Below, one piece after another: positions 3,184 through 13,315 of a stretch of DNA of 51,777 nucleotides (position 1 is its first letter; each line of letters opens with the position of its first letter). The DNA lies in the IMG/VR virus record IMGVR_UViG_3300020042_005180, positions 1 to 51,777 of that record; one strand, given 5' to 3'. The DNA comes from a virus. Taxonomy: Duplodnaviria > Caudoviricetes. Both the position numbers and the translations under genes were made by a program. The notes under the pieces are model-generated. The model ran no database searches. It saw only the letters and a list, made by a program, of their open reading frames with translations, and had not been told where the DNA came from.

Positions 3184-3594
3184 TTATTGATTTCTTTTCT
3201 TCTTGGCAGCAATAAACTGTTTTTCCATATTAGCGTTTGCCTTTTGAGCAGCCTCTTTCTCTGCTCTGGCAGCAGATATTGAAGTGTTATCTTTTCTGTC
3301 CATAAACGCATTAGATGCGTAGCCTGGAAGTAGATTAAATCTATTATTATCCATCATGGTCATTTTCTCATCACCTATAATATGCTTCATAGCACCTGTA
3401 TCACCCATAATGTAGTTTATTTCAGCATCTGTTTTTGTAGTATAGTCACTTACTTGTTTGGCGCTTGGCTTTACAGTCACCTCTTTAAATTTAGTGTCTG
3501 GTCGAACTATCATTGAATCTGGAATAATGGTTGTGTCCCTAGTTAAACGATCGATCGCTTTGTTTTTGAACGGGATAGAGTTGTAGTCTTTCAT
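3184..3594 (-). CDS. Hypothetical protein, paralog A (MKDYNSIPFKNKAIDRLTR N-terminus)
   Basis: 136-aa ORF; promoter box TACATTTG at 3621-3628. Confidence 0.8.
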   Translation of the reverse strand: MKDYNSIPFKNKAIDRLTRDTTIIPDSMIVRPDTKFKEVTVKPSAKQVSDYTTKTDAEINYIMGDTGAMKHIIGDEKMTMMDNNRFNLLPGYASNAFMDRKDNTSISAARAEKEAAQKANANMEKQFIAAKKKRNQ

Positions 3595-3642: not shown

Positions 3643-4023
3643 TTATTCCTCAACCTTAGATAAAAAAAAACTTAAAAAGGATGCTCCCGTTAATCCAGCT
3701 CCAATATTGTTCATGTTATTTTTTATTTTTGATTTTATTTGCGATTTTTTTGCCGCCTTTAAATCTTTATACGCACCTGTTTCTTTGTATGGTCTGCTAT
3801 CTACAATCTTGTCGTTAGACTGATCTCTCTGAGAGATTCTTGCAACCTTCGGGCTCGCTAGTTTCATAGGGTTACCCGATTGATCGTAAGTTATATTAGC
3901 AGGAGTAACCTTAACCTCTTGAATCTGAGTGCCTTTGTTCTGAGTGCCTGGTACTATGGTTGTGTTCCTAGTTAATCGATCGATTGCCTTGTTTTTGAAT
4001 GGTATAGAGTTATAGTCCTTCAT
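3643..4023 (-). CDS. Hypothetical protein, paralog B (same N-terminus)
   Basis: 126-aa ORF; promoter box TATCTTTG at 4039-4046; hydrophobic C-terminal segment. Confidence 0.8.
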   Translation of the reverse strand: MKDYNSIPFKNKAIDRLTRNTTIVPGTQNKGTQIQEVKVTPANITYDQSGNPMKLASPKVARISQRDQSNDKIVDSRPYKETGAYKDLKAAKKSQIKSKIKNNMNNIGAGLTGASFLSFFLSKVEE

Positions 4024-4069: not shown

Positions 4070-4600
4070 TGTAGGTTTTGGGCAATAGGGCCATCTGACG
4101 TTCGCCAGCCCGAAAGGAAAACGATTTCAAATTGAAGGGGGGGTCTCCATTTTGGCCTATTGAGTCGGAATTTTCTAGCTTTTCCTAGGGCTGAGCCGTG
4201 CACCTCACCTGTGCAGTTGATACCACTACCACCACCGCTACCACTACGCCTGTGCTACCTGTGATGGCCATCTATCAGCCGACCAATCGACCTGTCGTCC
4301 GACCTACCTACAAATATAGCTGTACTATAATTTGCATTATGTTAAATAGAAACGCCTTGAGACCAATCGATATGTCGACCAATCGAACGGCCAAAAGGTA
4401 TGCATCTGAGCCAATCGCACGGCTGTAATGGAGGGGTTACATCATCCGTTACAAAAATATAACAAACTTTTTTCAATTATTTTTACCTCTGTAACTCATT
4501 GTAATACAGCAACATACATCATATGTTTGTAATAATAACGTGTCAATTGAAAAAAAACTTTCAAACAAAGTGTAACATTTATAAACAAATAGCATTATAA
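4070..4600. other. Non-coding strand-switch region, candidate genome terminus or packaging region
   Basis: Divergent genes on either side; inverted repeat caatagggcca/tggcctattg around a G-run; GACCAATCGA x3 plus one variant; further imperfect inverted repeats. Confidence 0.45.
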
Positions 4601-4797
4601 GTATGTAAGGCAAACGAGCCGAGGTTGATTTTCTTAGAAAGGTACACGATGCAAAATGGTATATGTCGAGGGTATGAATGTCGGTAGGCTATGGTGATAC
4701 ATAGATAGATGTTTAAAGAGTGAGGCATAGAGAGTGATTGCAAGACAAAAACGATAGGGGAGAACGAGTGTTAACGCTCCCGCCAAAACAATACTAA

Positions 4798-4844
4798 GGT
4801 GTAGTTAGAACGACTAATCAATAGGAGCGATACCTACTGCACCA
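4798..4844 (+). ncRNA. Minimal tRNA-like structure lacking an anticodon arm
   Basis: 7-bp acceptor-like stem GGTGTAG/CTGCACC+A, hairpin TTAG-AACGA-CTAA, T-arm-like TAGG-AGCGATA-CCTA. Confidence 0.55.
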
Positions 4845-4866
4845 CTAACCAACAAAAACCTATACA

Positions 4867-4971
4867 ATGAAAACTGAGAAAGCCCCAATCGTTTTTTTAA
4901 GCGGTGTAATTCTATTAGCAGTAGTTATCATATACAATGTAATGACCATCGGTGTTCATTGCTCTATCTAA
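4867..4971 (+). CDS. Small membrane protein (34 aa)
   Basis: MKTEKAPIVFLSGVILLAVVIIYNVMTIGVHCSI, preceded by the leader motif. Confidence 0.7.
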   Translation: MKTEKAPIVFLSGVILLAVVIIYNVMTIGVHCSI

Positions 4972-4972
4972 A

Positions 4973-5024
4973 GGTTAACTGACGAGTCTTAACTAGACGA
5001 AACGGCCTACGGGCTGTCTTAACC
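4973..5024 (+). ncRNA. Type I hammerhead ribozyme 1
   Basis: GGTTAA-CTGACGA-GTCT(TAACT)AGAC-GAAA-CGGCC(TACG)GGCTG-TC-TTAACC: complete catalytic core and three stems; predicted cleavage after GUC (C5018). Confidence 0.93.
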
Positions 5025-5042
5025 AACAAATACCTAGAAATT

Positions 5043-5300
5043 ATGATGAACTACCAAAAATTAATGGCTCAAGAGCCTACAAGCTACGGCAAAATGGTAA
5101 ACGATAAAGGTCAAATAATTGAATTTTTCGAGCATCCATTCTATGGTGACGAGTCAGATGTGATAGCTGTATCTCACGACTTAAAGTTAGCTAGCTACAC
5201 CACGTTTTACGATACACATGACATGACGGCTAGCCATGGTGAGTATCAACCATCATTCAAAGATGGCAAGTTATTCATTGGTGATTACGAGGTTAACTGA
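5043..5300 (+). CDS. Hypothetical early protein flanked by two hammerheads
   Basis: 85-aa ORF with leader motif; its TGA stop lies inside the core of hammerhead 2. Confidence 0.85.
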   Translation: MMNYQKLMAQEPTSYGKMVNDKGQIIEFFEHPFYGDESDVIAVSHDLKLASYTTFYDTHDMTASHGEYQPSFKDGKLFIGDYEVN

Positions 5301-5340
5301 CGAGTCTTTATGAGACGAAATGCCGTGAGGCATCTTAACC
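5291..5340 (+). ncRNA. Type I hammerhead ribozyme 2
   Basis: GGTTAA-CTGACGA-GTCT(TTATG)AGAC-GAAA-TGCC(GTGA)GGCA-TC-TTAACC; predicted cleavage after AUC (C5334); stem III differs from copy 1 but stays paired. Confidence 0.93.
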
Positions 5341-5358
5341 AATAAAAACCTAGAAAAA

Positions 5359-5466
5359 ATGACAAGTAAAATCATTAGAATCGAGGGAGCATTCGAGATA
5401 TGGGGCTTCTTCAACAACGGAGTATTAGTACGAACAAACAAATTAAGAGTAAGAGCATGGAGGTAG
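5359..5466 (+). CDS. Small early protein (35 aa)
   Basis: MTSKIIRIEGAFEIWGFFNNGVLVRTNKLRVRAWR, directly after hammerhead 2 and the leader motif. Confidence 0.7.
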   Translation: MTSKIIRIEGAFEIWGFFNNGVLVRTNKLRVRAWR

Positions 5467-5606
5467 TACTGACATTCATAAACATCAGCGGTAAGCAGAT
5501 AGTTATGAGAAGAGAATTCACAGACGAGAATCATTTAACCAATTTTATTAACTATGCCACAAAACGTTATAACTATGTGTTTGACGAGGTGTGGTATAAA
5601 AACTAA
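5457..5606 (+). CDS. Small early protein (49 aa)
   Basis: MEVVLTFINISGKQ...; start overlaps the previous gene, more plausible than 5400. Confidence 0.65.
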   Translation: MEVVLTFINISGKQIVMRREFTDENHLTNFINYATKRYNYVFDEVWYKN

Positions 5607-5611
5607 AACTT

Positions 5612-5818
5612 ATGAAAGCAATAGCAATTTTAATCGCGACAATAATCCTAAGCGGATGCGCTATGGTCAAAGAAACCGAAACGTGCACGGGCTATTGGCC
5701 TGATAGCATATTGAACCCTGAGAACAGCGAATTCGTAAATGAGGTAGCATTCCACTTGAGAATCAAGAATAGTAAGGTGACTCAACAGATGTTTAACGAG
5801 AGATATATTAACCAATAA
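5612..5818 (+). CDS. Putative small lipoprotein
   Basis: MKAIAILIATIILSG-C lipobox-like signal peptide. Confidence 0.7.
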   Translation: MKAIAILIATIILSGCAMVKETETCTGYWPDSILNPENSEFVNEVAFHLRIKNSKVTQQMFNERYINQ

Positions 5819-5830
5819 ACCTTAGAACTT

Positions 5831-6052
5831 ATGAACCAACGAATGAACAATATCGGATTCCACAAGACAGATGGTATCACTAGAGAGATAACAATCAGAG
5901 AGCAATTAATCCGCAACATTAACTTTGTGGGCATCAACGACATCAAGCATCCAATACACAGGATAATTGACGTTAAAAGAGACAAGCTAGACGACCTGTT
6001 GAAGTTTACAGAGGAAGAACTTATCGCTATGTCACCCGAACAATTTATATAG
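5831..6052 (+). CDS. Hypothetical early protein
   Basis: 73 aa, leader motif. Confidence 0.8.
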   Translation: MNQRMNNIGFHKTDGITREITIREQLIRNINFVGINDIKHPIHRIIDVKRDKLDDLLKFTEEELIAMSPEQFI

Positions 6053-6077
6053 TATTAACCAATAAAAAATAGAACTT

Positions 6078-6251
6078 ATGAGCGAATTAAAAGTAGGTGA
6101 CACAGTCGGAGAATTTCGATATGGTCACGGGGTAGGAGAAGTAGTTAAGGTAGATGGTGACAACGTACTTGTCGCATGGTACGAGTGGTCAATAGCTGAC
6201 TCATGGATAACTTCAGAATCATTAACAATTGAGCCGTATGGCGGATTTTAA
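6078..6251 (+). CDS. Small SH3/KOW-like beta-barrel protein (57 aa)
   Basis: MSELKVGDTV...GVGEVVKVDGDNVLVAW pattern; leader motif. Confidence 0.7.
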   Translation: MSELKVGDTVGEFRYGHGVGEVVKVDGDNVLVAWYEWSIADSWITSESLTIEPYGGF

Positions 6252-6282
6252 TTAGTAACTAACCAAATAAAAAATAGAACCT

Positions 6283-6501
6283 ATGAAACCTAACCAAACA
6301 AGAAAAGTTTATTGTGTCTTAAACAACGGGACACATAAATTAGTTGATGACAAATCATTGGCAACAAGGCTATGTAAAAAAGATGCTGAACATATGTTAA
6401 CATCTTATGGTAGTGCAACTATAGAAGAGCTAAACAATTCAGACTTCGATAGATATATCGTTGTTGCAGAAACACAAAGCAAAGGAAGTTATACAATTTA
6501 A
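6283..6501 (+). CDS. Hypothetical early protein
   Basis: 72 aa, leader motif. Confidence 0.8.
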   Translation: MKPNQTRKVYCVLNNGTHKLVDDKSLATRLCKKDAEHMLTSYGSATIEELNNSDFDRYIVVAETQSKGSYTI

Positions 6502-6513
6502 AACCTAGAAAAC

Positions 6514-6720
6514 ATGACAAAGAACCAATTAATCATAAAGTACATTGACCTACGAGATGAGTTGATGGACTACACGATGGAGCATTTTGATGCTATGTCC
6601 TACGACATTGATGGATACCTTGAAGAGGATGAAATTGATATCGATGAATTAAAAAATCAAGTCAAGGCATTCAAGATATTGCTCAAGGCTTACAAGTTAA
6701 TATACTATACATACGGATAA
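6514..6720 (+). CDS. Hypothetical acidic early protein
   Basis: 68 aa, leader motif. Confidence 0.8.
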   Translation: MTKNQLIIKYIDLRDELMDYTMEHFDAMSYDIDGYLEEDEIDIDELKNQVKAFKILLKAYKLIYYTYG

Positions 6721-6741
6721 CCAATTTAAAACCTAGAACTT

Positions 6742-7062
6742 ATGAAAAAATATGCAAGAAGATGTGATGCTACGGGACGTGGTATGAACGAGGGATGGGT
6801 ATGGGGTGAGGGTACTTACTACACCTCAACACTTGAATTAACCATGAAAGAACTTAGAGATGACGTAAGAGATGGCGCCTATGATTTTGACGAATTAGGT
6901 GCAGAAAAAATGTTACAAATGTCAGACGATGAATTATTAACATATGCATACGACAATGATGTCTTATACTACACAGAGTGGGAAGAGATTGACGATGAGA
7001 TATACCCTCTAGACTCTGAAGATTGTTATTATGACGAGGATGGAAACGAATATGAACTTTAA
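6742..7062 (+). CDS. Highly acidic early protein
   Basis: 106 aa, ARRCDATGRGMNEGW N-terminus, D/E-rich C-terminus, leader motif. Confidence 0.85.
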   Translation: MKKYARRCDATGRGMNEGWVWGEGTYYTSTLELTMKELRDDVRDGAYDFDELGAEKMLQMSDDELLTYAYDNDVLYYTEWEEIDDEIYPLDSEDCYYDEDGNEYEL

Positions 7063-7074
7063 AACCTAGAAACT

Positions 7075-7272
7075 ATGACAATCTTAAAACTTCAATCAGC
7101 AGAGACGATTGACCAAAACGGAATCATCTACTACTTGACGGGCGAGTATGCCTATGTGGGCAAGATAGAAAGTGGTAACACAAGAATCATACTTGATAAG
7201 GATGACGGAATGTTATACATGATTGAAATGAATGATAGAAAAATAAATTCACTAACCAATAAAAACCTATAA
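7075..7272 (+). CDS. Hypothetical early protein
   Basis: 65 aa, leader motif. Confidence 0.75.
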   Translation: MTILKLQSAETIDQNGIIYYLTGEYAYVGKIESGNTRIILDKDDGMLYMIEMNDRKINSLTNKNL

Positions 7273-7275
7273 ACT

Positions 7276-7491
7276 ATGAACAGAATTGATCAAATCATAG
7301 CATACGAATGTGGTATGCTAGACGGGGCAGGTATGGTGTACCTGTTCGCTGAACTAATAAAAGATGGCTCAGCATGGAGTCTACAAGGCCACTACGGACG
7401 GACGGCCAAGCTATTAATCGACCGAGGCATCATCATGCCGAACGGGGACATAGACGAGATGGCTGCAATTGAATGTGGAATTGAAATGTAA
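7276..7491 (+). CDS. Conserved-looking phage early protein (AWSLQGxYGRTA motif)
   Basis: 71 aa; LIKDGSAWSLQGHYGRTA is a motif recalled from many phage early genes; leader motif. Confidence 0.85.
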   Translation: MNRIDQIIAYECGMLDGAGMVYLFAELIKDGSAWSLQGHYGRTAKLLIDRGIIMPNGDIDEMAAIECGIEM

Positions 7492-7514
7492 CTAACCTTT
7501 AAAACCTAGAACTT

Positions 7515-7799
7515 ATGACTGATAACAATTTTAAAATAGGAGACATCGTAACATTTTATGGTTGCACCAATGGTATACCTAATGGTGGAATTTCTTTTGG
7601 AGAAATCATAGAAATAAACGGAGAACGTGCACGTGTAGTTACAGGGGGCATTGACTTGAATCGAACAAATCATTTCAAACCAAACTATATGATACCTATA
7701 AGAGTTAGACCAATAATAGAAGATGACTCCATTTACAAGGTAACATTATCTACAGCAAAATCTATTGATAACACCAATTGGGGTGCATCACCATACTAA
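7515..7799 (+). CDS. Hypothetical early protein (FKIGDIV SH3-like start)
   Basis: 94 aa, leader motif. Confidence 0.8.
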   Translation: MTDNNFKIGDIVTFYGCTNGIPNGGISFGEIIEINGERARVVTGGIDLNRTNHFKPNYMIPIRVRPIIEDDSIYKVTLSTAKSIDNTNWGASPY

Positions 7800-7828
7800 A
7801 TAAATTACTAACCTATAAACCAAAAAAA

Positions 7829-8062
7829 ATGACAAGAGAACAAATAATGCAAACGGGAGGAAAGTTCTTCTCAGTATCATTCATCAAGAAGGATGGTACA
7901 ACAAGAAAGATGACGGCACGAATTGGAGTCAAGAAAGACATCAAGGGTGTAGGTCTAAGATTTAATCCATCTGAACGAGACCTCATCGTAGCGTTCGATA
8001 TCCACAAGAAAGCATATCGAATGATTAACCTAGCAACAATACTAACCTTTAAATTTAAGTAA
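7829..8062 (+). CDS. DUF2693/WYL_2-like SH3 barrel protein
   Basis: GKFFSVSFIKKDGTTRKM...FDIHKKAYRMIN pattern; start reassigned to ATG 7829. Confidence 0.7.
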   Translation: MTREQIMQTGGKFFSVSFIKKDGTTRKMTARIGVKKDIKGVGLRFNPSERDLIVAFDIHKKAYRMINLATILTFKFK

Positions 8063-8064
8063 CC

Positions 8065-8202
8065 ATGTACAGAACAATAAGCCAATTAACCCAAGACGAG
8101 CTATTTGAATTATCAGATAGAGAAGATATGACAATCGAACAATTAAACGAATATTTTATAGCGACATTATTTTCTGATGACGATTTTTTTTGTAACCTTT
8201 AA
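8065..8202 (+). CDS. Small acidic protein (45 aa)
   Basis: MYRTISQLTQDELFEL...FSDDDFFCNL; fills the gap exactly. Confidence 0.65.
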   Translation: MYRTISQLTQDELFELSDREDMTIEQLNEYFIATLFSDDDFFCNL

Positions 8203-8214
8203 AACTTAGAAACT

Positions 8215-8364
8215 ATGACACAAGAACAAGCCCACGAAATTTTGGTAAGGAATAATATTTTTTGCGGTGGAGATATTCCATTCGATAAAACAACCAATTA
8301 CATTGGTATGTTGTACGAAACAAATACCCATCGCAGAATTTGGAACGCTGAAGAATTAAAATAA
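8215..8364 (+). CDS. Small early protein (49 aa)
   Basis: MTQEQAHEILVRNN..., leader motif. Confidence 0.65.
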   Translation: MTQEQAHEILVRNNIFCGGDIPFDKTTNYIGMLYETNTHRRIWNAEELK

Positions 8365-8390
8365 TTAACTAACCTTTAAACCTTAGAACC

Positions 8391-13187: not shown

Positions 13188-13258
13188 AGTCAGGTGGCTT
13201 AATGGTAAAGCCCGACCTTTTAAGTCGGAGTATACAGGTTCGATTCCTGTCCTGACTT
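13188..13258 (+). tRNA. tRNA-Lys (anticodon UUU)
   Basis: Acceptor AGTCAGG/CCTGACT, D-arm GCTT/AAGC, anticodon arm CCGAC-CTTTTAA-GTCGG, T-arm ACAGG-TTCGATT-CCTGT; CCA not encoded. Confidence 0.9.
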
Positions 13259-13315
13259 CACTTTATAGGTACAGTTAGGGTTCTGTGGTTAGCCAACCAT
13301 TTTTGGAAAAACTCT

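Follow-up and report, generated by a model that had tools for sequence, protein, structure and literature searches.

The early mRNA of phage T7 is processed by RNase III, a host protein that acts at double-stranded stems, and mitochondrial transcripts are punctuated by real tRNAs. Hammerhead ribozymes cleave after H17 and leave 2',3'-cyclic phosphate and 5'-OH ends. Clustered hammerheads flank genes in prophages and phages, and Perreault et al. (2011), who reported them, proposed that they cut phage polycistrons into operon- or gene-length mRNAs; three triple arrays are described there as cleaving in vitro and one in E. coli (PMC3088659). The same paper describes a hammerhead of haloviruses HF1 and HF2 that lies 13 nt ahead of an early start codon; the 5' end of the HF2 mRNA maps at most 3 nt from the cut (PMC3088659). 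In the 5' UTRs of fungal and plant RNA viruses, type I hammerheads are reported shortly before the start codon, one of them cutting 7 nt before the ORF with its 5' end placed by RACE (PMC13725137). RiboJ is an engineered, sTRSV-derived hammerhead whose product carries a hairpin at its new 5' end. It is reported to raise mRNA by a factor of about two and protein by a factor of two to ten, an effect partly ascribed to that hairpin (PMC6206723). According to a 2019 review, the purpose of bacterial and phage self-cleaving ribozymes is still undefined (PMC6765202).

The DNA analysed here, a linear virus record of 51.8 kb that is called the window throughout, resembles the clusters of Perreault et al. 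in that at least two co-oriented hammerheads flank single genes in a phage. It differs from them in that its ribozymes form part of a uniform type I subfamily, whose stem I has 6 bp, whose loop II has five bases and which lacks a pseudoknot, in that the distance to the AUG is fixed and follows the initiation type of the host, and in that the ribozyme interchanges with a tRNA-shaped element. The subfamily shares the open stem I topology, the core and the NUH site of Rfam family RF00163, but lies under the gathering cut-off and mostly reverses the usual contact between U1.7 and an A of loop II. As in RiboJ, a hammerhead stands ahead of the ribosome binding site, where it would strip upstream RNA and standardise the 5' end; unlike in RiboJ, the predicted products are bare A-rich leaders within an operon. 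The cutting of a long transcript between genes at structured sites, as proposed here, is common to T7 RNase III processing and mitochondrial tRNA punctuation, but in the window ribozymes and an anticodon-less mimic alternate in one slot. The RNA virus hammerheads, in contrast, belong to eukaryotic viruses with other initiation machinery, and the study discarded its DNA phage hits (PMC13725137).

That the phage processes its own transcript, as a first-pass annotation of this DNA suggested, is a partly supported idea that has been in print since 2011 (PMC3088659). No report of the subfamily geometry, the spacing rule or a swap with a tRNA mimic was found in the open-licence literature; because Dataset S1 of PMC3088659 has entries for 860 environmental type I sequences, members of the subfamily may already be catalogued. 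The new content is the interchange of ribozyme and tRNA-shaped element together with a tertiary covariation; the ribozymes are real, and their arrangement is a variant of a known one.

The phage and its early gene block

The window, to which CheckV assigns a completeness of 84%, encodes groEL, portal, virion, exonuclease, SSB, primase and helicase functions. The closest relative of its primase is that of a spring-water podovirus (49.6%), and the match to Flavobacterium elemo phages is 40.4% over 38% of the length. These primase relatives, and the A-rich leaders without Shine-Dalgarno (SD) motifs found in the window, point to a host among the Bacteroidota.

The two hammerheads, HH1 and HH2, stand at the front of a + strand block of small genes without assigned function, which begins past a non-coding gap near 4600. 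The coding strand switches at 4572..4615, where a TGTNAC...TTA...GGCAA block on the + strand, conserved in alignment with four related loci (L018, L001, L066 and L064), is a candidate early promoter and transcript start. Scans of the window for sigma-70 promoters and for terminators both stayed at chance level (28 against 25.5 and 5 against 3.4, respectively), and by these scans an internal promoter is neither supported nor excluded. Three + strand genes concern us here. The first (4867..4971) is a 34-aa ORF of unknown function with homologues in L018, L304, L293 and L166, and its stop ends 2 nt upstream of HH1; the second (5043..5300) encodes 85 aa, belongs to phrog_11770, of unknown function, and terminates at a UGA that is also the UGA within the CUGA core of HH2; the third (5359..5466) is a 35-aa ORF, again of unknown function. 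A function search with the proteins encoded beside HH1 and HH2 gave none.

Structure of HH1 and HH2

HH1 (4973-5024) and HH2 (5291-5340), both on the + strand, were read from the sequence and with a motif script. In both, the CUGAnGA, GAAA and NUH core elements are present, helices II and III are closed and helix I is open, as is required of type I. The core of HH1 comprises CUGACGA (4979-4985), GAAA (4999-5002) and the triplet GUC with C17 at 5018; its stem I pairs GGUUAA (4973-4978) with UUAACC (5019-5024) and is flanked by A4972 (position 2.7) and A5025 (position 1.7), its stem II is GUCU/AGAC with loop UAACU, and its stem III is CGGCC/GGCUG with loop UACG. The corresponding elements of HH2 are CUGACGA (5297-5303), GAAA (5317-5320) and AUC with C17 at 5334, a stem I of GGUUAA (5291-5296) with UUAACC (5335-5340), a stem II of GUCU/AGAC with loop UUAUG, and a stem III of UGCC/GGCA with loop GUGA. 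Cleavage is predicted at C5018/U5019 and at C5334/U5335, 24 nt upstream of the AUGs at 5043 and 5359, so that the predicted + strand products begin with leaders at 5019..5042 and 5335..5358. The sequence and the motif script thereby confirm what the first-pass annotation had described: two complete hammerheads with an invariant core, an identical stem I and a differing yet paired stem III, each cutting 24 nt before the next AUG.

The minimum-energy and centroid folds of both RNAs are the hammerhead (z -2.9 for HH1, -2.2 for HH2), and a search for an alternative fold gave none for either. Neither strand of the window has a third full hammerhead, and 100 order-3 Markov simulations of the window produced none. 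The family model, whose training set included HH1 and not HH2, scores them at 71 and 54 bits; the next best hit in the window has 10 bits, and no further or decayed hammerhead exceeds that value. Judged by sequence, HH1 and HH2 are intact type I hammerheads. The Rfam models, proposed earlier as a check, find no hammerhead in the window at gathering thresholds, only its tRNA-Lys gene. With Hammerhead_1 (RF00163), whose cut-off is 34 bits, HH1 scores 25.4 bits and HH2 is absent from the hits up to an E value of 5.

A hammerhead subfamily in related phages

A first search pattern, modelled on the copies in the window, retrieved 111 IMG/VR loci with 172 distinct hammerheads, at up to nine copies per locus and with all copies of a locus on one strand in 111/111. 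The second pattern fixed only the core, the G10.1-C11.1 pair and a UNANU loop II, leaving stems I and III free; applied to 4 of 64 database parts it retrieved at least 132 IMG/VR loci, and the estimated number of stored stretches is about 1,900. Full type I hammerheads account for 131 of its 142 distinct matches, the remaining 11 falling short, and this is a fairer test than the two-sided changes seen at 13 of 16 pairs in 37 equal-length members, because those 37 rows were selected as full hammerheads. Loss of core conservation in homologous phages had been named beforehand as an outcome that would speak against the ribozymes; core conservation holds in the related phages, with covariation in each of the three stems.

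The geometry of stem I is rigid and its sequence is free. Fifty-two different hexamers occur among the 131 full hammerheads (GGUUAA in 20 of them); the stem is exactly 6 bp long in 132/135 and closed by G-C in 130/134, and an A flanks it on one side in 133/134 and on the other in 132/134. Stem III is G+C-rich and very variable in length. None of 20 member loci reaches the Rfam cut-off.

Beyond IMG/VR, 42 loci with 35 distinct full copies were found in GTDB, both in Bacteroidota and in numerous short MAG contigs labelled otherwise. A member is present in the cultured Cellulophaga phage phi19:3, and an equivalent stretch in phi18:3. Full-length searches of five related records yielded one to four matches each, clustered within 1.5 kb, and the 25.9 kb searched of MW202828.1, the phage with the closest primase, yielded no family match. 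The subfamily is large, invisible at the Rfam threshold and rigid, and since phages of Cellulophaga and Flavobacterium that carry it are in culture, the question of purpose is directly testable.

Several variants were seen in passing. In Flavobacterium phage elemoF_6-3D (L431, NC_055853.1) a type I copy of the family on the minus strand (16104-16043) has a broken stem II and a cut site 28 nt upstream of an AUG, and a further hammerhead core on the minus strand (~17925-17865), of type III topology by eye, directly precedes the first early gene (17851). Variants with an extra base (U or C) between A9 and stem II occur in L430 (2190-2240), L304, L293 and L064. Some copies in L003, L004, L021 and L270 carry a small GNRA hairpin of the GGCGAAAGCC type directly after stem I; there the leader measures 31-34 nt, and the product would receive a 5' hairpin as in RiboJ.

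The loop II-stem I contact

When loop II was left free to vary (n=162), its last base and N1.7 formed U-A in 139 cases, A-U in 16 and G-A in 7, the minority form to which HH2 belongs; its first base and N2.7 formed U-A in 159 and A-U in 3. An out-of-sample search used a pattern that forces A as the last base of loop II, and of its 113 distinct matches 41 proved to be full type I hammerheads and 72 were dropped. With loop II ending in A, N1.7 is U in 30/41 and A in 11/41, as compared with A in 131/131 when the loop ends in U, the sequences in neither set being independent; in the out-of-sample set a first loop base A goes with U2.7 in 6/6. A U at 1.7 could instead lengthen stem I, yet the swap recurs on many different stems. 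This covariation supports a tertiary contact between loop II and stem I in the subfamily, HH1 and HH2 included. Contact of U1.7 with an A of loop II is reported to speed hammerheads (PMC11875169, citing O'Rourke et al.); the subfamily mostly has the reverse, A1.7 with a loop II U. The covariation would therefore argue for selection on fast cleavage.

Distance to the start codon

For this comparison a start was counted when an ORF of at least 30 codons begins 17-30 nt past the cut. Copies with a TTAA stem have such a start in 155/175 cases (8.8% at random positions), at a median of 22 nt, and an SD-like motif in 4/170 leaders. In the stem-I-free set 69/129 do so (random 9.7%) and 15 copies have no ORF start within 60 nt; for stems other than TTAA the median from cut to start is 26 nt, and 47/90 leaders have an SD-like motif. 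The search of related phages for the same joining of ribozyme and leader, proposed with the first-pass annotation, thus found the distance from cut to AUG conserved.

Translation initiation in Flavobacterium johnsoniae is reported to be raised by adenines at -12, -13, -3 and -6 and by low structure (PMC6847099). The leaders of the family have these adenines, with A-12 in 152/167 and A-13 in 131/167, and the leader is an ordinary initiation region of the Bacteroidota type. It was also considered as a motif specific to ribozymes and ruled out as such: of the 14 early leaders examined in the window two carry a ribozyme, and a TAAC..TAGAA leader with its TAAC near -22 is present on 8 of the 11 that lack any device, which makes it a general early leader. 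The fusion of ribozyme and leader holds, then, for both copies but is not exclusive to them; likewise the proposal that the early transcript is processed into ribozyme-made units is favoured by the conserved core and spacing, but extends to few of the early genes.

Folding predictions suggest what a cut would do. The unpaired fraction at -16..+3 is predicted to rise from 0.61 to 0.87 for gene 5043 and from 0.69 to 0.81 for gene 5359, while the leader of gene 4867 is predicted to be open even uncut (0.94), so that cutting adds little. A device is missing upstream of 7/8 homologues of gene 5043 and of 12/12 homologues of gene 5831.

A tRNA-shaped element in the same slot

One gene upstream of HH1, positions 4798..4844 of the + strand form a 47-nt tRNA-shaped element whose pairing is conserved. 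It has an acceptor-like stem of 7 bp (4798-4804 paired with 4837-4843), a hairpin resembling a D arm, a T-like arm of 4 bp whose loop reads AGCGAUA, and an unpaired discriminator, A4844; the anticodon arm is absent and no CCA is encoded after A4844. Acceptor-like stem and T-like arm would stack to 11 bp, against the usual 12. In an alignment of 13 sequences 98.5% of the cells are paired and three pairs show two-sided changes, and the shape persists in divergent copies whose acceptor sequences differ. More divergent copies still were noted in L003, L019, L033, L110, L237 and L430. ARAGORN and Rfam do not call the element. Its reading as a tRNA gene was rejected, given the missing anticodon arm and a T-loop of AGCGAUA rather than TTCRA; in sequence it has the shape of a tRNA-like processing element, of the kind that is a substrate for RNase P or RNase Z.

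The element ends 19-24 nt upstream of an AUG in 24/24 matched copies, a set found with a search expression that required an AUG within about 45 nt. Its trailer begins CUAACY, in the register of the ribozyme product UUAACY (together YUAACY), and in the window the 22-nt A-rich leader at 4845..4866 (+ strand) begins CUAACC where the ribozyme products begin UUAACC. The slot before gene 4867 thus holds the tRNA-shaped element in the window and a hammerhead in relatives L018 and L001. Homologues of gene 4867 have a hammerhead upstream in 2/4 and the element in 2/4; for homologues of gene 5359 the counts are 12/24 and 9/24, with neither in 3/24, and all these shares are biased because the loci were fetched by the same motifs.

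The end of the element, after A4844, is presumably where RNase Z would cut. RNase Z scores above cut-off in four of the five Bacteroidota genomes checked, none of which is established as the host of the phage. Cleavage by RNase Z would leave a product with a 5' phosphate, and if that enzyme does cut an element sharing the slot and register of the hammerhead, conservation would concern the position of the end and not its chemistry. In the same event, two parts of the first-pass annotation, processing without a host enzyme and uniform 5'-OH leaders, would miss part of the arrangement, since a tRNA-shaped RNA replaces the relatives' hammerhead before gene 4867. The swap is a natural experiment in which the position of the end can be told apart from its chemistry.

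What the cuts may do

It is probable that HH1 and HH2 cut the first early transcript and, together with an RNase Z cut at 4798-4844, free 22-24-nt leaders that make genes 4867, 5043 and 5359 independent of upstream RNA. Transcription would start from a promoter near 4600, and the transcript would be cut after A4844 by host RNase Z and after C5018 and C5334 by self-cleavage, with 5'-OH and 2',3'-cyclic phosphate ends at the latter two. The predicted pieces are a non-coding head, single-gene messages of 174 and 316 nt, and the remainder. After the cut the weak 6-bp stem I would let go, each of the three genes would gain a bare, single-stranded, A-rich leader of 22-24 nt, and ribosome loading might become better or more uniform; the stem III hairpin, 2 nt from the 3' end, may shield each upstream piece. 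Such an arrangement would be a natural counterpart of the RiboJ insulator, and ribozymes of 50 nt in which stem I can vary freely would also serve Bacteroidota genetics as compact insulator parts. What matters is probably a 5' end set free some 22 nt ahead of the AUG, rather than 5'-OH chemistry or independence of a host enzyme.

A stronger version is put forward tentatively, at somewhat below even chances: that this is modular punctuation, in which the hammerhead and a tRNA mimic, unrelated to it and lacking an anticodon, serve interchangeably to free the same YUAACY-led 20-24-nt leader, and that the cut is needed for strong early translation. The sharing of the leader by most early genes without a device (8/11 keep TAAC) counts against such a need, as do the homologues of gene 5043 that lack a device, the negative search of 25.9 kb of MW202828.1 and the broken stem II of the elemoF_6-3D copy. 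The boldest form, which makes the tRNA-shaped element itself a new, self-cutting ribozyme, is very improbable.

Among other explanations, the one that survives best, unlikely as it is, holds that the cuts mainly set differing lifetimes of the pieces, the spacing merely sparing the initiation region. A 5' monophosphate is reported to stimulate RNases E, J and Y, and RNase E/G is present in 5/5 of the Bacteroidota genomes checked that carry family members. Ends with a 5'-OH resist decay stimulated in this way, and on this reading hairpin and cyclic phosphate together would protect the piece upstream. A G+C-rich stem III of very variable length would also suit pieces of differing stability, but the slot equally takes the tRNA-shaped element, whose RNase Z product would bear the 5' monophosphate.

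Less probable again is conditional cleavage, in which terminating upstream ribosomes cover stem I and the core and so couple neighbouring genes or time early expression. The stop of the upstream gene does lie between -16 and +11 of the core in 164/171 copies, and in HH2 the core's own UGA is that stop; but the ribozyme sequence itself often has stops in several frames, tight packing accounts for the overlap, and the fold search described above gave no alternative structure through which such control might work. About equally doubtful is that the ribozymes, although active, ride on shuffled early-gene cassettes and cut without much effect on the phage. Close relatives vary in gene order and in the presence of devices, copy number ranges from one to four per record and up to nine per locus, and neighbouring copies share stem I above chance, as expected from duplication. 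Set against this neutral carriage are the retention of core, helix lengths, tertiary pair and spacing across very different sequences, the convergence of an unrelated structure, the tRNA-shaped element, on the same register, and the fact that no nearby coding element could mobilise the ribozymes.

Circular mRNA, with HH1 and HH2 excising and re-ligating the 316-nt unit 5019-5334 as the UUAACC of HH1 completes stem I of HH2, fits their identical stems I and the full cross-compatibility of 15 of 25 neighbouring pairs (hand-grouped from second-pattern loci; 7.4% at random), but is highly improbable here and is rejected as a general purpose, because the other 10 pairs have incompatible stems I and 54/111 loci hold a single copy; Perreault et al., moreover, detected neither spliced nor circular products in their cases (PMC3088659).

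Other features of the window

The early transcript would be headed by about 190 nt of non-coding RNA (4610-4795), which contains a hairpin near 4757-4783 and is 79% identical to positions 1743-2000 of L066; its counterpart in L018, L001 and L064 is unrelated sequence, and it may be another exchangeable RNA module. Further downstream, at 5600-8390, a TAACC..AAAACCTAGAA leader is common to at least 11 more early genes, and the differing gene order at these leaders among close relatives suggests cassette shuffling by leader recombination. On the minus strand, two adjacent ORFs of 136 and 126 aa share a near-identical N-terminus, MKDYNSIPFKNKAIDRLTR (3550-3594 and 3979-4023), which is a local duplication. 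The tRNA-Lys gene (UUU; 13188-13259) lies between the SSB region and the primase. At 4137-4147, at the strand switch, a run of G followed by TC is conserved in L018, L001 and elemoF, and by resemblance we take it to be possibly a packaging or genome-end site.
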